DNA of 22,545 nucleotides from Nitrosopumilales archaeon (GTDB lineage: Archaea > Thermoproteota > Nitrososphaeria > Nitrososphaerales > Nitrososphaeraceae): assembly GCA_044507735.1 (NCBI GenBank), contig JBIQJB010000031.1:1-22545 (forward strand). Direction: 5' to 3'. How positions within the stretch are numbered: position 1 is the stretch's first letter; each line of letters begins with the position of its first letter. The notes below the pieces were generated by a model. That model searched no databases. It saw only the letters and a list, made by a program, of their open reading frames with translations, and was not told where the DNA came from. Both the position numbers and the translations under genes were made by a program. Positions 1,534 to 16,595 of the stretch are shown in pieces.

Positions 1534-2589
1534 TCATTCTATGCGCACAAGGCTTGCCAGTATCTTGTCTGATGGTATCTTTTGCTCGACGCCTGCAGCA
1601 ATCGCCGCAAGGTTCCTGATCTCAAATGCCATCAGCTTGATGGATGCGAGAAGGTTTGCAACCGTAAAGACAGTGCGGTACGAGTTCATTATGCGCCTGA
1701 GCGACTCTTTCTCAAATGCCGCCTCGAGTTGCATTATGGCATCGATGTCGTTTGCAGCGCTGCGGGGGATCAGCTCCTTGTATGCGGTGCCTGCTAGCTC
1801 GCCAATCGCCTCCTGTATCTTTTCTGTGTTTATCATGCGCTGGAGCACGTCTTTTGAAACCTTGCCGGTGGTGACTATCAAGTCGCTCACTTCTGCAGGG
1901 CTCAGACCCCAGAACTTGCCGCGGAGGACTGCAAGTACATTGTATGCATCAACGTCGACCGAGACAACCTTGGTCGTGTCCTGAAGCTTGGATTCAAAGG
2001 CTACTGCCCTGTCAAGCGACTTGTAAAAGGCATGATCAAGAAAAGTGTCAAACACACGCACGTCGCCCTTTTCCTTGTATGCTTGGGCGGCCTTGCGGGC
2101 GTCTTCGCCAAATTCGCTTCCTGCAAGTGAGTTGATTGCTTCGTCAAAATCCTTGGCCACTAGAGCCTTGACGACCAGATCTCTGCGTCCCACCAGCTCT
2201 TCTGCCCTCAAGTTTACTTTTGGCAGCAGCTCTTCATAGGTCCTGCCCAGGGCCTTACCCTTCAGGATGATCTTCAAGTTCCATGTGATGTATCTGACAA
2301 AATAGGCGCTGAGTATTGCCGAGCCGTTTGCGATGTTGACTATTTTTGCGTGCTGGTTGACAAGGTGTTCACGCAGCGCCGACTCGACCTTTTCCGCAGT
2401 ATATGGCTTGGTTAGTTTTGCAAGAGCGTCAAGATAAACAGTGTTTTTCATTCTGGTAACGAGCTCGTCCACATCTCTGGACTCTGCCAGAGTCTGGAAC
2501 TCGGTCCTGGATAGCATCTTGCCTCTCAGGCTGTGGGCAAGAACGGTACCGAATATCTTGTTTGGCAGGCTGACCTTGTTAGTGTTCAA
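1534..2589 (-). CDS. atpC: A/V-type ATP synthase subunit C (AC39 family)
   Basis: 351 aa helical protein with SLRGKMLSR, WNLKIILKGK, LDHAFY, VDAYNVLAVLRGK and EIRNLAAIAAG, typical of subunit C. TTG start, with a TATA-like TTTATAAA about 25 nt upstream. Confidence 0.9.
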   Translation of the reverse strand: MNTNKVSLPNKIFGTVLAHSLRGKMLSRTEFQTLAESRDVDELVTRMKNTVYLDALAKLTKPYTAEKVESALREHLVNQHAKIVNIANGSAILSAYFVRYITWNLKIILKGKALGRTYEELLPKVNLRAEELVGRRDLVVKALVAKDFDEAINSLAGSEFGEDARKAAQAYKEKGDVRVFDTFLDHAFYKSLDRAVAFESKLQDTTKVVSVDVDAYNVLAVLRGKFWGLSPAEVSDLIVTTGKVSKDVLQRMINTEKIQEAIGELAGTAYKELIPRSAANDIDAIMQLEAAFEKESLRRIMNSYRTVFTVANLLASIKLMAFEIRNLAAIAAGVEQKIPSDKILASLVRIE

Positions 2590-2671
2590 GCTGCACTCAG
2601 TTCCTCTGGTACTTTATAAAAACTATCCTTAATCTTCTACAGATGGTATCAACCCCTTCTTGAACCTTTGG

Positions 2672-2985
2672 CTACGTTTTGCCCCATCCATCTCTTCTTC
2701 TTGCAGCTATTATGCTGCTGGACAACGCTATCGAAACTCCAGCAGTGACTATTGACAGAGAACCAGCAAATTCCGGTATTGCGGTGGTGCCTACAATCTC
2801 TATTGTGTCTGCCCTTTCATGTGGCATTGATATAGAGATCGAGGTGAGGTTCTCGTTGACTGGATTGCCGTAATAGCGCGGACTATAATCGATGTCATAC
2901 ACACGGTGCTGTCCATCAAGAAACACACTGTATGGTCCGCCCAGCATCTCTTTTGGAAATGTGACTGTAAATTCAGCTGCTTTAT
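2672..2985 (-). pseudogene. C-terminal fragment of a PEFG-CTERM-like surface protein, cut by the 2986-3353 element
   Basis: TVTFPKEMLGGPYSVFLDG...IEIVGTTAIPEF followed by a TM helix and basic tail. The apparent N-terminus of ORF 2672..3244 reads through the mobile element. Confidence 0.75.
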
Positions 2986-3353
2986 AGTGAAATTTGGCGA
3001 GAAGACCACTGGACTTGTCCAGTGGATGAATCGCTGCAGTATTTTTAAAAAGCTGGATGTATACCAAGTGTAGGATGAAGCGACGTCTGTGGCGCTCGCT
3101 GACATTGCACAGGAACCAAGCTGAGTAGTGCGGTCGCCGACAATACAGCGACAGGGCGAGTGACATGGTTAGAAGTAGCCCAACCAGGTCTGAGGCTATA
3201 TGTCTCAGATAGGGGTCGAGCGGCATCCTGTAATTCCTCCGCAAGGGAGAATAGACAGGGAAACCAGTGAACCGACCCAGAACTGCTGCTAGGGTAGACA
3301 GGAACCCGATGATGACAGCAGAGGCTATCGGTCTATGACCGATAGTAGTTCAC
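2986..3353 (+). mobile_element. Non-autonomous IS200/IS605 derivative (368 bp) with left end, promoter, omegaRNA and right end
   Basis: Left-end hairpin CCACTGGAC-tt-GTCCAGTGG (3006-3025) starts 20 nt after TTAT (2982-2985). 3267-3353 matches 1025-1111 at 78/87 nt, with an identical right-end hairpin and TCAC terminus. No tnpA or tnpB ORF inside. Confidence 0.88.
3042..3051 (+). promoter_or_regulatory. Putative TATA box inside the non-autonomous element
   Basis: TTTTTAAAAA just after the left-end hairpin. Predicted start near 3070-3076, just before the structured region. Confidence 0.5.
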
Positions 3354-3373
3354 AGGCACGCTCGATTTAGCCG
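3075..3373 (+). ncRNA. Stand-alone expanded omegaRNA-like RNA with guide AGGCACGCTCGATTTAGCCG (from 3354)
   Basis: Same four stems and pseudoknot as 985-1111, with compensatory substitutions. Extra stem-loop at 3219-3266 and extra 5' stems at 3079-3186. Transcript ends are inferred. Confidence 0.7.
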
Positions 3374-3573
3374 CGGAGCCTCACCTCGACCCTTGCGTCG
3401 AAAAAAGCCCCTGTATTGTTTTGAAAAATTCCAAGTGGGAATCAGCTACAGCGAGAAAGACCGTTAATGGATCTTGACTGTTGATTGTTTAACTACTGAA
3501 AACAGCATTATACTTAAAGGCTTTAACTATAAAGATAATGAGTTTAAATAGCATAGAGCGCTAATAGTTAAGG

Positions 3574-4674
3574 ATGACATTAGTTATCAAAAGCATCAAT
3601 GGTATTTCATACTATTACTACCAAGATAGGGTAAAGACTACCGGCAAAGGAAGGGCTAGAACTATAAGCACCTTTGTAGGCAGGACTGACCTTAATCCCC
3701 AGGATCTTGCTGCAGCACAAAGAATTGCTTTGGACAGGCATATTGTCAAATTGTTCAAGGCTGCATCTCTGATCAAAGATCAAGGATATCATTTTGAAAC
3801 ATGGCAATATACTCAAGAGGATCTAGATGCTTTCGAATTCGTGAAGGTAATCTATCAGATAGTCAAGAATCAGATCCAGCAAGATGAATTGATGGAATAC
3901 GAAAAGATGTTCTATAATAGGTATGTCTATGGGACCACCGCCATAGAAGGAAATATGTTAAGTGAGCAGGAAACTGCCAAAGTACTTGAAACTGGTCTGA
4001 CAGTGGAAAATAGACCTCTGTCTGATACTATTGCGGTAGCAAACTACAATGATGTAAAGAAATTCATGAAGGATTACTCTGCAGGTGTATCTGAGAATAT
4101 GATAAAGACGGTTCACACCATTTTGATGAAAGGAATGAAGGGTGATGATGGATTACCTATACCGCTTGGTGAATACAGAAAGAATCGTTCAAGGATCCAC
4201 GGACTAGGTTATACTCCACCGCCTCCAGAAGCTATTTCAGAACATATGAGGTACTTGCTTGCCGAATATGATGATCGTATTAGGAGAAAAGTGCATCCTG
4301 TAGAGGCTGCGGTAATCTTCCATCAAAAACTTGAAGAGATACACCCATTCAAGGACGGGAATGGTCGCACTGGACGGGAGATACTAAACTTCATGCTGCA
4401 GAAGGCCGGGTATCCGCCGATTTACATAACACCTAAGGAGCGTAAGAACTATATCGATGCTTTAGAGCAAGGCAATAGTCAAAACTATTCTCCTCTTATG
4501 ACTTTTGTAGCGACTAGGATGGCTGCTACGCTATGGTATATGTTCTCGCGAACAAAGATATTCGACGTTGCAACTGAGGCTCTATCTAAAGTCGCTGCCA
4601 GTCCAAATGAGCACGGCATAAAGAAAGTATTAGAGCGACTGGCAAACTATCATTCGTCGCCTGATCTTCCTTAA
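3574..4674 (+). CDS. Fic family protein (AMPylase-type, with an intramolecular inhibitory motif)
   Basis: Intact HPFKDGNGRTGR Fic motif. TTAIEGN is an (S/T)xxxE(G/N) inhibitory helix N-terminal to the core. TTTAAATA at 3543-3550. Confidence 0.93.
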   Translation: MTLVIKSINGISYYYYQDRVKTTGKGRARTISTFVGRTDLNPQDLAAAQRIALDRHIVKLFKAASLIKDQGYHFETWQYTQEDLDAFEFVKVIYQIVKNQIQQDELMEYEKMFYNRYVYGTTAIEGNMLSEQETAKVLETGLTVENRPLSDTIAVANYNDVKKFMKDYSAGVSENMIKTVHTILMKGMKGDDGLPIPLGEYRKNRSRIHGLGYTPPPPEAISEHMRYLLAEYDDRIRRKVHPVEAAVIFHQKLEEIHPFKDGNGRTGREILNFMLQKAGYPPIYITPKERKNYIDALEQGNSQNYSPLMTFVATRMAATLWYMFSRTKIFDVATEALSKVAASPNEHGIKKVLERLANYHSSPDLP

Positions 4675-10683: not shown

Positions 10684-10935
10684 ATGGGACTGTTCAGGCG
10701 CTGGAAGCCGAAGGGCAAGATGTACAGCCTGAAATGCACACAGTGCGGCGAAGGCTTTCTGTCCAGCTATCCACTGGAAGCGCCCATCTGCGGCAAGTGC
10801 CTGCAGAAGGCCAAGTCCCTCGACTCGACCATTGATCACGACAAGACCTGCATCAAGTGCGGCACACAGGGCGTGATCTATGGCAAGGAATACTGCTACT
10901 CATGCTATTTTGGCTTCAACAAGAAAGAGCAGTAG
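10684..10935 (+). CDS. Small double zinc-finger protein (four CxxC)
   Basis: CTQC, CGKC, CIKC, CYSC. ATG at 10684 is preferred over TTG at 10654. Confidence 0.7.
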   Translation: MGLFRRWKPKGKMYSLKCTQCGEGFLSSYPLEAPICGKCLQKAKSLDSTIDHDKTCIKCGTQGVIYGKEYCYSCYFGFNKKEQ

Positions 10936-14170: not shown

Positions 14171-14189
14171 GTGTGTGAAAGAAAGCAAA

Positions 14190-15581
14190 ATGGCAAAAAC
14201 ATTTGAAGAATTAGGATTGAGTGCACAACTAACAAGAGCACTCTCCGAAAATGGATTTGAGGCGCCGTTCCCTATACAAGAGGCAGCTATACCGCTTGTT
14301 TTGGAAGGTAAAGATGTCATAGGACAGGCGCACACAGGAACCGGCAAGACGGCGGCATTTGGACTGCCGATATTGCAAAAGATCAAGGCAGACGGGCCGG
14401 TACAGGCCCTGATACTTGCGCCGACAAGGGAACTTTCGGTGCAGGTGACAACCGAGATCAACAGGTTCGCAAAGTACACAGGAGTCAAGACCGTCGCAAT
14501 CTATGGCGGCCAAAGCATGAACGTACAGCTTGACAAGCTCCAGCGCGGGGCCCAGATAGTGGTCGCGACACCCGGCAGGCTTATCGACCACATAAAGCAG
14601 GGTTCGATAATCCTCGACGATGTCAAGTTCGTCGTGCTCGACGAAGCAGACAGGATGCTAGACATGGGCTTCATTGACGACATCAAGTTCATCCTGTTCT
14701 ACGTGAACGAGGATCGCCAGACATGTCTGTTCTCTGCAACAATGCCTCCGGAAATCTTGCGGCTGGCAGAGGAATACATGAAGCGCGACGAAATTGAGCA
14801 TGTCAAGCTCAACGAAGAAGAAGTCACGCTTGAAACAATCGACCAGTCATATCTGGTGGTTGAAGAGCGCGAAAAGTTCAGGCACCTGGTCAACTTTATC
14901 AAGCAGAACAATGGAAACAAGAGCCAGACAATAGTATTCGCTGCTACAAAGCAGCGCGCAGACAGGGTCGCATACCAGTTAAGGCGCGAAGGCCTCAATG
15001 CAGTCGCAATCCACGGCGACCTGTCGCAAAGGCAGCGCGACAACGCGATGGGCAAGTTCAGGAAAGGAACAGAAGACATCCTGGTTGCGACAGACATTGC
15101 AGCAAGGGGAATCGATGTCCCGTCAGTCGGAAACGTCATCAACTACGACATTCCAGACGACCCCAACGTGTACTTCCACAGGATCGGCAGGACCGCGAGG
15201 GCCGGCGCAGAGGGCAGGGCGATATCTCTTGTCTCAAATGACAGGATCGCAGACTTTGACCGCATCCTTGCACAGACCCATCTCCCGATACGCAAGCTCA
15301 ATGACGAAATGGGAATCGTTGTGCCGGTAGTCGCGCAGCGTCAGCCGCAGATGTATGGCGGCGGATCCAGAAGGCGCGGCGGCTACGGCGGCGGTGGCGG
15401 CGGCAGACGCTTTGGCAGCGGCGGTCGCGGATACCGCGGTGGCGGTGGGAGCGGTGGCGGCGGATACGGAGGAAGGCGCGGCGGCCACAGGAGCTTTGGC
15501 GGTGGCGGCTATCGTGGTGGCGGAGGCAGACACTACGGCGGCAACCGCGGCTACTACGGCGGGAGCGGCTCCAGCTATTAA
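14190..15581 (+). CDS. deaD: DEAD-box RNA helicase (DeaD/CshA-like) with an RGG/YGG-rich tail
   Basis: Q motif, AHTGTGKT, PTREL, TPGR, DEAD, SAT, ARGID and HRIGRTAR, then a long G/R/Y tail. ATG at 14190 is preferred. Confidence 0.95.
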   Translation: MAKTFEELGLSAQLTRALSENGFEAPFPIQEAAIPLVLEGKDVIGQAHTGTGKTAAFGLPILQKIKADGPVQALILAPTRELSVQVTTEINRFAKYTGVKTVAIYGGQSMNVQLDKLQRGAQIVVATPGRLIDHIKQGSIILDDVKFVVLDEADRMLDMGFIDDIKFILFYVNEDRQTCLFSATMPPEILRLAEEYMKRDEIEHVKLNEEEVTLETIDQSYLVVEEREKFRHLVNFIKQNNGNKSQTIVFAATKQRADRVAYQLRREGLNAVAIHGDLSQRQRDNAMGKFRKGTEDILVATDIAARGIDVPSVGNVINYDIPDDPNVYFHRIGRTARAGAEGRAISLVSNDRIADFDRILAQTHLPIRKLNDEMGIVVPVVAQRQPQMYGGGSRRRGGYGGGGGGRRFGSGGRGYRGGGGSGGGGYGGRRGGHRSFGGGGYRGGGGRHYGGNRGYYGGSGSSY

Positions 15582-15625
15582 GCGGGCACACCATTTTTAA
15601 AGCCCGCTCACTTTCCTATTTTTTG

Positions 15626-16150
15626 ATGTCTTTTGGCGTCGACACTCTCGGAGGCTTGACCGAGAAGCTAAAGCAATTGGTTAACGATACTCAGGGCCTC
15701 TACGAGTCATTCATTGACGCTAACCAGCTCTACAAGCAGGGCAAGCTTGGAGATAAGGAGTTCTTTTCCAGGATAGGCGAATACCTGGTTGCGACGTCTG
15801 CGATGAACTTTCTGGCCGTCCGCGTCATCCTGGAGCTAAAGACTGCCTTGGAGAAGGGCACATCGGTCAAGAGCCCAACAGGCGGCAGCTCGTACCCATC
15901 AATGCCCCAGGCAGGCTTTGGCATCGGAGGCTTTGTAGGCGCAGGCGGCACCGCTGGGCCCTCCGCAGGGGCAGGGGGCGGCGAGTATGTGCTTCCGTCT
16001 CCTCCGGATCCACAGCAGCAGGAACTGCCGTCGTTCAAGCCGGTGGACATTGAGCTCCCAAAGAAAAGCTCGACCAAGAACTGCATCATTTGCGGCGCTT
16101 CCATTCCTGCGCAGGCCAAGTTCTGCAGCAAGTGCGGCAGGTCGCAATAA
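15626..16150 (+). CDS. Zinc-ribbon domain protein
   Basis: Helical N-terminus, G/P linker, C-terminal CIICG...AKFCSKCG. Confidence 0.85.
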   Translation: MSFGVDTLGGLTEKLKQLVNDTQGLYESFIDANQLYKQGKLGDKEFFSRIGEYLVATSAMNFLAVRVILELKTALEKGTSVKSPTGGSSYPSMPQAGFGIGGFVGAGGTAGPSAGAGGGEYVLPSPPDPQQQELPSFKPVDIELPKKSSTKNCIICGASIPAQAKFCSKCGRSQ

Positions 16151-16181
16151 TTAATAGCCACTCTCGGTCATCCTTTTCGTG

Positions 16182-16595
16182 ATGGCAAAGGCGTTCAATG
16201 GCAGGTCAGCCACCGACGAGTACATGTCTACCCACTCGCTTACCTTCTCCACCCCCGAGATGACTCTGCGAAAGTTTGCACTGTGGCTTGGCGAGCCAGT
16301 AAGCCTTCCCGGCGGAGAGCGGGGGCCGCGCCTCATGCTGTATCTTGAGGAAAAGAACGAAAGGAAAGCATCTGAGCTCATGCCCGATGTCGATGACTCT
16401 TTCAAGCCTACGGGGGCAGTGACTGAAATGTACCGCGGGCTTCCTTCGGCGCCCACCGATCAGACGTCTCCACCGCAGCTGACTCCGCTAGATAGGGAGA
16501 CTCTGGAGCCGGAGCAAAAGTTCTGCATCAGCTGCGGCAACAGGCTCAAGGCAAATGCCAAGTTCTGCACAAAATGCGGAAGCGCCCAGGGCTAG
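16182..16595 (+). CDS. Zinc-ribbon domain protein
   Basis: C-terminal CISCG...AKFCTKCG, 31 nt after the previous gene. Confidence 0.85.
   Translation: MAKAFNGRSATDEYMSTHSLTFSTPEMTLRKFALWLGEPVSLPGGERGPRLMLYLEEKNERKASELMPDVDDSFKPTGAVTEMYRGLPSAPTDQTSPPQLTPLDRETLEPEQKFCISCGNRLKANAKFCTKCGSAQG

Follow-up and report, generated by a model that had tools for sequence, protein, structure and literature searches.

The 48-nt segment at 3219-3266 is probably an expansion, closed by a helix, of loop L1 of the pseudoknot in a putative trans-acting omegaRNA, which is carried on a protein-less, PATE-like element and predicted to be loaded by TnpB. The window (the whole stretch of DNA analyzed, 22,545 nt from a Nitrososphaeraceae archaeon) holds both this element and a TnpB-coding relative; coordinates without a contig name refer to the window, and the features described are on its + strand. 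PATE-borne omegaRNAs are already known; the distinguishing trait here is the hairpin-expanded loop. The anatomy of the element, its family, its mobility and the covariation of its helices are shown by the copies; transcription, loading onto TnpB and cleavage are predicted. On this comparison, the insert appears to be an old, lineage-defining hallmark of a mobile PATE-like family in soil ammonia-oxidizing archaea.

The protein-less element and its TnpB-coding parent

Copy 1 is an autonomous IS200/IS605-type element whose tnpB gene (26-1096) is recognized by Pfam Cas12f1-like_TNB (1.6e-21) and by matches to TnpB structures in the PDB; OrfB_IS605 scores 25.6 bits, under its cut-off. A Y1 tnpA gene (C34:91-450) and a left-end hairpin lie on contig C34, whose first 55 nt match positions 1-55 as their reverse complement; the genome has two Y1 tnpA genes. 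Copy 1 ends at the IS right end with the 3' strand of its pseudoknot, GTTCAC (1106-1111). Its TnpB is a candidate trans-acting nuclease for the protein-less element. In an alignment it has Gly at the canonical RuvC-II Glu position (ILGNIK), a trait of the largest rearranged TnpB clade (PMC10691335); the likeness to the RuvC-II-rearranged clades is read from the alignment alone.

Copy 2, the protein-less element (2991-3353, ~363 bp), lies 1.9 kb downstream of copy 1 and consists of a left end, a promoter-like box, a structured RNA and a right end. An nhmmer profile built from five copies matches it over hmm 2-365 (E 2.7e-108), and full-length homologues occur in other genomes between unrelated flanks. 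With the tnpA/tnpB IS of its own genome it shares only 32 nt at the left end (94% identical) and the final 87 nt (3267-3353 against 1025-1111, 90% identical); blastn detects nothing in the TnpB element that matches the intervening 3032-3266. In one metagenome contig, the position equivalent to 3031 is joined to that of 3267 through 1426 other letters, which make up a full IS. The element is too short for a transposase and has no protein gene: the one long ORF across it belongs to a minus-strand ORF, without a Pfam match, that reaches into the element only by an N-terminal extension lacking support.

The ends are of IS605 type. No inverted terminal repeats were found; related subterminal palindromes are present at both ends. 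The left-end hairpin (3006-3025, CCACTGGAC-TT-GTCCAGTGG) is common to the TnpB-bearing elements, being present in L006, L008, L018 and L019 as well as in the genome's own IS. The right-end hairpin (3324-3346), likewise shared with the genome's own tnpA/tnpB element and others, is also the last stem of the omegaRNA, and is followed by the 3' strand of the pseudoknot, GTTCAC (3348-3353); homology among copies ends exactly there, at 3353. Just outside the left boundary, or at it, stands a TAM-like motif, TTTATAG (2981-2987, read by eye). In ~13 elements, from both classes, this or a one-base variant (TTTATAA, TTTATAT or TTATAG) precedes the left-end hairpin by 11-13 nt, with unrelated sequence upstream of it; L038 differs, with TATATG. 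The autonomous element of the window has the motif too, in its left-end flank on contig C34. The flank that would be read as guide (3354-3373) is different in every copy. No second site of at least 14 nt for it was found in the genome itself, and hence nothing points to a domesticated regulatory target.

No empty site was found: in a genus-wide search with 2400-3950 (72 genomes, five best syntenic loci compared) synteny stopped at 2642, and contigs from four runs contained no joint skipping the element. For this reason the proposed boundaries, the TAM and the lack of a target duplication are read from flank conservation alone.

Within the element, a candidate archaeal TATA box, TTTTTAAAAA (3042-3051), precedes the start of RNA-level conservation by ~25 nt, and an A/T-rich box occupies the same alignment position in other copies; a promoter role would fit. 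Next comes a 5' domain specific to the protein-less class (3072-3187), with helices P1 (3081-3098), P2 (3133-3152) and P3 (3154-3181); no match to it was found in TnpB-bearing elements. Rfam matched no family in the whole window at gathering thresholds; over 2950-3400, at E<=10, it returned only four weak C/D-box chance matches of 12-18 bits, against cut-offs of 38-48.

The insert and its fold

The insert reads AGCGGCATCCTGTAATTCCTCCGCAAGGGAGAATAGACAGGGAAACCA. In copy 1 the pseudoknot hairpin (1017-1036) has GGGTAG (1017-1022) and CTGCCC around the loop TTGTGAAC, in which only TT separates GGGTAG from the pseudoknot strand GTGAAC (1025-1030). Copy 2 has GGGTCG (3213-3218), the 48 nt, GTGAAC (3267-3272) and CGACCC (3273-3278). 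Relative to copy 1 the enclosing stem has exchanged A-U for C-G and U.G for U-A; these changes are therefore compensatory.

Between a 5' flank, AGCGGCAU, and a 3' flank, GAAACCA, the insert forms two helices. The strands TCCTGT (3226-3231) and ACAGGG (3255-3260) provide the basal helix (3227-3231/3255-3259), with an internal loop above it; the strands ATTC (3233-3236) and GAAT (3249-3252), together with CC-GCAA-GG (3239-3246), provide the upper helix (3233-3240/3245-3252), which closes the GCAA loop (3241-3244). The first-pass annotation had described this fold, and had placed the 48 nt in the loop of the pseudoknot strand where copy 1 has TT; the sequence bears out both, with every named strand in its place. 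Its account of a stand-alone omegaRNA with an ancestral frame homologous to the TnpB C-terminus also holds: no TnpB homology was found upstream, and the remnant frame VNRPRTAARVDRNPMMTAEAIGL, with its stop, matches TnpB residues 331-356 at 77%.

Folded alone, the 48-mer reaches -15.2 kcal/mol (z = -2.1; 6 of 200 shuffles are as stable), only mildly beyond chance. The hairpin is given weight because of the comparison with other copies, that is, the covariation of the basal helix and the presence of an insert in 20 of 20 genome copies. Conserved across copies are the flanks CGGCAU and GAAACC and a covarying basal helix of 3-5 bp; in genome and metagenome copies alike the flanks are far better kept than the tip. 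In seven of the 20 genome copies, the short form, the fold scores z about 0 against mononucleotide shuffles and the basal helix alone remains, with 3-4 bp. Total length ranges naturally from 28 to 65 nt across copies, in keeping with the claim that the position tolerates insertions. Microsatellite-like runs expand within some copies.

Kink-turns consist of a 3-nt bulge followed by tandem sheared G.A / A.G pairs. By inspection, neither internal loop of the insert has a GA/GA arrangement, and a kink-turn or L7Ae site was set aside. Nor is the 48-mer a separate mobile repeat in its own genome, as had been entertained: blastn-short returns only the insert itself, the next best match being 19 nt with one mismatch (E 0.065).

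A family of mobile copies

Twenty copies were found in seven Nitrososphaeraceae genomes, and all 20 carry an insert at exactly this position, of 31-65 nt from CGGCAU to the pseudoknot strand. The insertion is thus no private event of this copy, a result in favor of the first-pass reading, against which uniqueness to this copy would have counted. At least 16 of 20 metagenome loci have it too (28-62 nt); none of 13 copies of the TnpB-coding type does, and there the loop measures 8-13 nt. Two metagenome copies are without it: L087, which has the 5' domain and a short loop, and L079, for which only ~80 nt of upstream sequence is covered. The insert is therefore not indispensable for persistence. 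Insert and 5' domain occur together in every full-length copy but one.

Two features that define an omegaRNA are present: the scaffold (3267-3353) is a homologue of the tnpB 3' end and stops where the transposon does on its right side, and a hairpin loop forms a pseudoknot with the nucleotides immediately before the guide. A tnpB in cis is absent, which makes this the trans (PATE) form. By tblastn no tnpB lies around any hairpin-bearing copy within a nominal ~1.5 kb per side (less at contig ends), apart from unrelated adjacent fragments at L084, L089 and L061. A related TnpB (at least 70% identity) is found in only four of the seven carrier genomes, and none was detected at E<=1e-30 in G110 (90% complete) or G101 (75% complete).

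Paired copies from one genome have 92-94% identity. Their 40-nt flanks reach 45-65% in that global alignment, a range read without a random-sequence control and taken by judgement to mean unrelated flanks. The family thus has multiple copies at different sites, with a TTTATAG-type motif on the left side only; the absence of target duplication is read from the flanks. Decayed fragments are also present in the genome (C9:3835-4058; C37).

Covariation of the RNA

Pairing was scored as the share of copies' cells that pair at the positions of the structure, against controls slid along the alignment, in sets of 10 and 25 copies. In the 10-copy set, 84.6% of cells are paired against 32-41% in slid controls, and 31 pairs have changed on both sides against 4-12; the margin over the controls is inflated, as the structure came from the sequence of the window itself, and the copies are related to one another. 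The covariation fits folding of RNA and of top-strand ssDNA alike.

The evidence is spread over most of the helices. In the insert, six of eight pairs have changed on both sides (10 copies); the basal 3 bp are paired in 90.3% of cells in 25 copies, with CG-to-UA exchanges at two of the three pairs, and the distal helix in 68% (10 copies). P1 has changed on both sides at five of six pairs. P2 is held in the 10 copies and falls to 37.5% of cells in 25, probably because a second subfamily uses another register. Stem P4 (TCTGAG / CTCAGA, 3189-3209), the positional homologue of the copy 1 stem 993-1014, has changed on both sides at all six pairs, with 87-92% of cells paired. An alternative pairing of GCUGAG with the 3' strand of P4, drawn by eye, was inconsistent across subfamilies and was dropped. 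The pseudoknot hairpin P5 (3213-3278), whose strands GGGTCG and CGACCC enclose the insert and the pseudoknot strand, is 89-92% paired, with compensatory changes relative to copy 1.

The terminal GTTCAC of copy 2 (3348-3353) and of copy 1 (1106-1111) is the reverse complement of GTGAAC (3267-3272 in copy 2), the 5' strand of the pseudoknot. Strands 3267-3272 and 3348-3353 pair in 96.5% of cells across 25 copies, and in the divergent copy L013 the pseudoknot is fully compensated (CTGACA / TGTCAG). Stem P6 (CTGCTG / CAGCAG, 3283-3321) has changed on both sides at five of six pairs, and is compensatory relative to CCGTTG / CAATGG of copy 1; its inner helix P6b (GGGT / ACCC, with GAUGAUGA on the 3' side) is paired in 57% of cells in the 10 copies. 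The right-end hairpin is 95% paired, with four of eight pairs changed on both sides. The first-pass annotation had held that every scaffold stem is intact; this is so for the 3' stems, which are kept with compensatory changes, but the claim does not extend to the 5' half, where 3032-3266 has no blastn match in the TnpB element to be compared with.

A model for the element, and its competitors

We propose that 2991-3353 is a non-autonomous IS200/IS605 derivative of Nitrososphaeraceae, whose end hairpins would have been kept for Y1 TnpA acting in trans. Between them would lie a self-standing omegaRNA gene: the promoter-like box, then the 5' domain of this class, then a 3' scaffold of TnpB type that includes the pseudoknot. 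Loop L1 is taken as the stretch from the 5' strand of the pseudoknot hairpin to the pseudoknot strand GUGAAC, and the 48 nt are probably this lineage's version of an old expansion of it. What appears to be maintained is the short closing helix with the flanks CGGCAU and GAAACC; these would hold the insert's two ends together and thereby preserve the GUGAAC:GUUCAC pseudoknot and the geometry of the scaffold, and the distal part would be free to grow, shrink or open. Once transcribed, the RNA would be loaded by TnpB made elsewhere, in this genome by the copy 1.9 kb upstream, and would guide cleavage of the element-free site: a TTTATAG-type motif, then the 3' flank.

A further step, possible though doubtful, would make the insert and the class-specific 5' domain one self-contained folding or maturation module. 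CGGC in the insert's 5' flank (3221-3224) would pair with GCUG (3120-3123) and clamp the 5' domain on the pseudoknot junction, with L1 as its docking point; the guide RNA could then fold, mature or be stabilized outside the tnpB mRNA, as a gene in its own right, with its own transcription and its own mobile element. The pairing itself is tentative. RNAalifold proposes it, 93.5% of 92 cells are paired against 25-66% in slid controls, and L034 (GGCG/CGCC) and L054b (GCGG/CCGC) show compensatory changes; the far better conservation of the flanks than of the tip, and the near-constant company of insert and 5' domain, agree with it. But the helix has 4 bp, with one compensatory cell at each of two pairs, a count that 16 of 500 shuffles reach; L061 breaks two of the four pairs, and L090, L097, L081 and L037 break at least one. 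A local alternative, GCGG with CC(A)GU, is also compatible with the change in L034, and L087 has the 5' domain without the insert.

One could also suppose that the element is a decaying, non-functional remnant: the insert would be junk acquired after coding constraint was lost, and the covariation a reflection of shared ancestry. The highly variable tip, with its microsatellite-like runs in some copies, looks the part; so do the decayed fragments in the genome itself and the failure to find TnpB in two of seven carrier genomes. We consider this unlikely. The non-terminal helices P1, P4 and P6, which transposition does not need, have changed on both sides without losing their pairing; the basal helix and flanks of the insert persist in copies down to ~60-68% overall identity; and near-identical copies at different sites speak for recent mobility.

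The hairpin might instead act at the DNA level, serving TnpA in the ssDNA transposition intermediate as an extra binding site or as spacing, with no role in RNA. IS200/IS605 elements do move as top-strand ssDNA with subterminal hairpins (PMC10055086), and covariation that tolerates G.U or G.T falls on the same strand either way. Yet each end already has its canonical subterminal hairpin (3006-3025; 3324-3346), the insert sits inside the pseudoknot hairpin of the omegaRNA, ~90 nt away from the right end, and TnpB-bearing elements with the same ends have no insert; this reading is very improbable.

Equally little credit goes to the idea, raised in the first-pass annotation, of a GNRA-capped arm selected because its tip contacts a tetraloop receptor or binds a protein. 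The cap CC-GCAA-GG is real in this copy, and GCAA recurs in the short-form copies L029 and L048, closable there with AC/GU by eye only and not in the RNAfold structures. Other copies have GCAG, ACAA, UUAAU, long A-rich loops of 7-10 nt, or an open tip; arm length varies as well, and the short form has no stable arm. The GNRA loop is thus not conserved across homologues, and a GNRA-mediated tertiary contact is therefore unlikely as a selected feature.

Archaeal bulge-helix-bulge introns have two 3-nt bulges on opposite strands, exactly 4 bp apart, with contiguous flanking helices. Excision at such a site, restoring the short loop, can be given almost no credence: the insert has a 4-bp helix CCUG/CAGG flanked by CAU (5' strand) and AGA (3' strand), and archaeal omegaRNAs can be circularized (PMC12558985), but by eye the unpaired UA (3231-3232) and GAAA (3260-3263) break the contiguity of the outer and inner helices with the 4-bp helix, so that the canonical hBHBh' geometry is not formed, the second bulge is absent from short-form copies, and PMC12558985 reports no bulge-helix-bulge at its circular omegaRNAs.

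Relation to known systems

The proposed L1 expansion is best placed against ISDra2, whose cryo-EM structure has the pseudoknot strand in the loop of stem 1, stacking on that stem (PMC10097598). As here, the 3' scaffold overlaps the end of tnpB, the stem 1 loop forms a pseudoknot with pre-guide nucleotides, and the guide is the flank past the right end; one flexible stem, the disordered 3b, can be deleted in ISDra2 with activity kept (PMC10097598). The Nitrososphaeraceae RNA, known here from sequence alone, differs in having its gene apart from tnpB, another 5' domain, and a helix-closed insert of 28-65 nt before the pseudoknot strand; the two have no sequence similarity.

PATEs of Haloquadratum (PMC3119063) and Geobacillus (PMC10055086) likewise have no protein gene and no inverted terminal repeats, with subterminal palindromes like those of an IS605-type parent and many copies at different sites. 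They 'often encode omegaRNAs' that are acted on in trans (PMC10055086), and these need TnpB in trans, as is proposed here. The present family differs in its Nitrososphaeraceae host, in an internal core of ~235 nt without detectable match in the parent IS, and in the class-specific loop expansion, a feature that does not figure in the available parts of PMC3119063 and PMC10055086. Sense-overlapping transcripts of IS200/IS605 elements in haloarchaea and Sulfolobales are archaeal omegaRNAs from the 3' end of tnpB, a likeness to the present case; they are tnpB-linked (PMC12558985), unlike the protein-less element. A limited literature search listed no paper linking Nitrososphaera to TnpB; the TnpB census (PMC10691335) may include these loci.

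Implications

If the RNA is inactive, the element is an ordinary decaying transposon remnant. If it is active with TnpB in trans, then dozens of natural variants show that L1 accepts 28-65 nt, given a short closing helix, which would amount to a design rule for placing aptamers or handles on compact TnpB editors. A cognate set of autonomous tnpA/tnpB element, guide-only element and TAM-like motif would then be at hand within ~3.4 kb and one adjoining contig.

Uncoupling of the guide gene from the nuclease gene is thought to be a step on the way from TnpB to CRISPR-Cas12. Should insert and 5' domain prove to form a module, the family would be a natural, still evolving example of such uncoupling. 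An active RNA would also mean that ammonia-oxidizing archaea harbor mobile elements that carry only a guide, with a promoter-like box of their own and a 5' domain that is not related to tnpB, which would bear on how guide RNAs came to be separate genes.

Identity of the two elements

Matches to TnpB and Cas12f in the PDB identify the ORF at 26-1096 as TnpB. Positions 1-55 are identical, in reverse complement, to the initial 55 nt of C34, another contig of the same genome, which carries on the opposite strand a Y1 transposase gene (C34:91-450) and then a left-end hairpin. Copy 1, the omegaRNA region at the 3' end of tnpB, hence forms the right end of an IS200/IS605-type element, ~1.58 kb long, that is autonomous and has both tnpA and tnpB. 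The window thus begins inside the autonomous IS, at an assembly break within the element, and the Y1 tnpA on C34 is divergent. The same genome also holds a decayed 5' element fragment (C9:3835-4058) and, on contig C37, a right-end remnant of the TnpB type.

Copy 2, the element at 2991-3353, is matched end to end by a profile built from five homologues, and no TnpB homology was found in it outside residues 331-356. Only two parts of it are shared with the IS: the final 87 nt, and the left end (94% identity over 32 nt), to which the hairpin 3006-3025 belongs. An independent line comes from a metagenome contig in which the stretches matching 3000-3031 and 3267-3316 are separated by 1426 other letters; this is the full IS.

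No family matches the ORF 2672-3244 on the minus strand; its N-terminal stretch, which crosses the RNA, is unsupported, and only its C-terminal part, with a tail like a sorting signal, looks like a real small protein. That smaller ORF (2672-2950) ends in PEF, a hydrophobic stretch and RRR, a tail that we take to resemble an archaeal C-terminal sorting signal; G110, a related genome, has a homologous stretch elsewhere. Farther along, a DEAD-box helicase ORF (14175-15581) has a long Gly/Arg/Tyr-rich tail of 10 imperfect repeats (15358-15562). A 28-nt motif (...AAGTTCTGCA.CAAGTGCGGCA) recurs at 10837, 16070-16139 and 16512-16581; within ORFs 15623-16150 and 16179-16595 it codes for paired Cys-x-x-Cys motifs like those of zinc ribbons.

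An insert in the pseudoknot hairpin

Copy 1 reads GGGTAG-TT-GTGAAC-CTGCCC at 1017-1036; copy 2 reads GGGTCG (3213-3218), then 48 nt (3219-3266), then GTGAAC (3267-3272) and CGACCC (3273-3278), and compensatory changes separate the two enclosing stems. Pairing partners within the 48 nt are TCCTGT/ACAGGG, ATTC/GAAT and CC-GCAA-GG. The first-pass annotation had described this insert and its pairings, and a reading of 1-1500 and 2700-3700 bears both out to the base. In either copy the last six bases, GTTCAC, are the reverse complement of GTGAAC; the 87-nt segment from one to the other is 90% identical between copies. Folded in isolation the 48-mer reaches -15.2 kcal/mol (z = -2.1), a predicted energy that is suggestive of structure and not decisive; prediction for the 254-nt RNA places the same hairpin within the GGGTCG/CGACCC stem (P5), with z = -4.4 for the whole RNA. 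The internal loop of helix P6 has on its 3' strand a box-C-like motif, GAUGAUGA (3308-3315), which recurs at 1066-1073 in copy 1; it has no matching CUGA opposite, and a second subfamily is without it.

In ISDra2, as set out in passages of PMC10097598, the pseudoknot strand lies within the stem 1 loop, the pseudoknot stacks on stem 1, and removal of a disordered stem raises activity. P5 of copy 2 would be the counterpart of ISDra2 stem 1. By analogy, the insert would take the place of the 2-nt segment between the 5' strand of P5 and the pseudoknot strand; in an H-type pseudoknot this segment is the loop that we label L1, following general pseudoknot nomenclature. The helix closing the insert would bring the chain back to the same place, so that constraint would be limited to the base of that helix.

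Two classes of element

Of 238 genomes from the family to which the source belongs, 21 gave matches in a DNA search. (Six genomes flagged as unpublished, G234, G089, G090, G092, G130 and G131, enter only the tallies of genomes in the DNA, genus-wide and TnpB searches, and support no claim.) The matches split into a TnpB-coding type, with a pseudoknot loop of 8-13 nt in all 13 loci where the pseudoknot hairpin could be interpreted, and a protein-less type, found at 20 places in seven genomes (G000 1, G110 2, G124 6, G101 3, G066 6, G068 1, G140 1). All 20 protein-less copies carry an insert where copy 2 does; counted from CGGCAU up to the pseudoknot strand it spans 31-65 nt, and 16 different sequences occur. 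The insert is thus not private to one copy, a possibility raised at first pass, and the proposal of an omegaRNA that stands alone and tolerates an expanded pseudoknot loop is broadly right. When metagenomes were scanned for a 23-nt pattern taken from the 3' flank, 20 further loci emerged: the insert (28-62 nt) is present in at least 16, absent from two (L087, L079) and cut by contig ends in two. No tnpB was found by tblastn in cis of the hairpin-bearing copies; only unrelated neighbouring fragments matched, at L084, L089 and L061.

Copies within a genome are 92-94% identical; their 40-nt flanks, at 45-65% in the same global alignment with no random-sequence control, are read as unrelated. Homology between copies ends at GTTCAC. 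To the left of the hairpin, at a distance of 11-13 nt, both classes carry TTTATAG or a sequence differing from it by one base. No empty (element-free) site was found in a genus search of 72 genomes, at the five best syntenic loci or in contigs from 4 runs.

Some individual copies deserve mention. The metagenome copy L087:1435-1680 has the class-specific 5' domain without the insert, its loop reading GGGGGCGGGAAACCTGTGAAC; this copy either arose by deletion or represents an intermediate. In a sub-lineage within G124 (L025, L040, L044, L039) the element has expanded to ~525 nt; its 5' domain and P6 loop contain runs that resemble microsatellites, namely (GAA)n, (TAG)n/(TGG)n and G-rich tracts, and its insert arm is the longest (62-65 nt). 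At L072 (G124:C157) another right-end/omegaRNA fragment adjoins a V-ATPase subunit gene homologous to the window gene 1534-2589; such elements may have landed repeatedly in this gene neighbourhood.

Conservation and covariation

Across copies three things are kept: the 5' flank CGGCAU, the 3' flank GAAACC(A/U) and the first 3-5 bp of the insert helix, which covary (CCUG/CAGG, UCUG/CAGG, CCC/GGG, CUC/GAG); all sequence distal to this basal helix is variable. A long form, the window copy and 12 others, has a stable arm (z -1.7 to -4.8 versus mononucleotide shuffles); a short form, to which seven of the 20 copies from genomes and the majority of those from metagenomes belong, has a 3-4-bp helix and an open loop of 9-17 nt, with z near 0. 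The GNRA cap does not hold up as a meaningful conserved feature: GCAA belongs to the window copy, an AC/GU closure possible by eye in L029 and L048 is absent from the RNAfold prediction, and loops elsewhere are GCAG, ACAA, UUAAU or A-rich.

Pairing was counted on a structure derived from the window's own sequence and in mutually related copies: over the whole structure in 10 copies, 84.6% of cells are paired versus 32-41% with partners slid, and 31 pairs are changed on both sides versus 4-12; in the insert helix such changes affect six of eight pairs. Among 25 copies, pairing reaches 90.3% in the basal 3 bp of the insert, two of which show CG-to-UA exchanges, 89-92% in the stem of the pseudoknot hairpin, and 96.5% in the nearly invariant pseudoknot; the divergent L013 has CTGACA/TGTCAG in place of GTGAAC/GTTCAC. 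Helices P2 (37.5%), P6b (57%) and the distal insert helix (68%) are weak.

RNAalifold also pairs CGGC of the insert (3221-3224) with GCUG (3120-3123) of the class-specific 5' domain. In 25 copies 93.5% of 92 cells are paired versus 25-66% slid, with compensatory changes in L034 and L054b; two pairs are broken in L061 and one or more in four other copies, and 16 of 500 shuffles equal the count of compensated pairs. A contact here is tentatively proposed.

Candidate partners in trans and relation to known elements

The genome of the window has two Y1 tnpA genes and a TnpB gene 1.9 kb upstream of copy 2. In the alignment to 9nzp_A this TnpB has Gly (707-721, residues about 228-232, ILGNIK) where solved TnpBs have the canonical catalytic Glu of RuvC-II; RuvC-I (IDMG) and RuvC-III (DADRNAA) are intact. 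In this the protein resembles TnpBs of the 'RuvC-II rearranged' type, and a Glu ~45 residues downstream (847-873, IEVSEAWTSQ) could be the substitute. Large 'rearranged' clades, in the portion of PMC10691335 that treats them, have Glu-to-Gly replacement with an alternative Glu and are presumed active. TnpB of at least 70% identity occurs in four of the seven carrier genomes; the best in G140 is a 48% relative, and none was found at E≤1e-30 in G110 (90% complete) or G101 (75% complete). Within its own genome, no further match of 14 nt or more to the guide-like flank was found. A search for RNA runs that contain the copy 2 stretch likewise found none. Transcription, RNA ends, TnpB loading and cleavage by the copy 2 RNA are inferred from sequence.

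PATE elements have been described for Haloquadratum, in parts of PMC3119063, and the protein-less type has the same anatomy. The protein-less element and its predicted RNA are a variant of the PATE-borne omegaRNA, itself already known.
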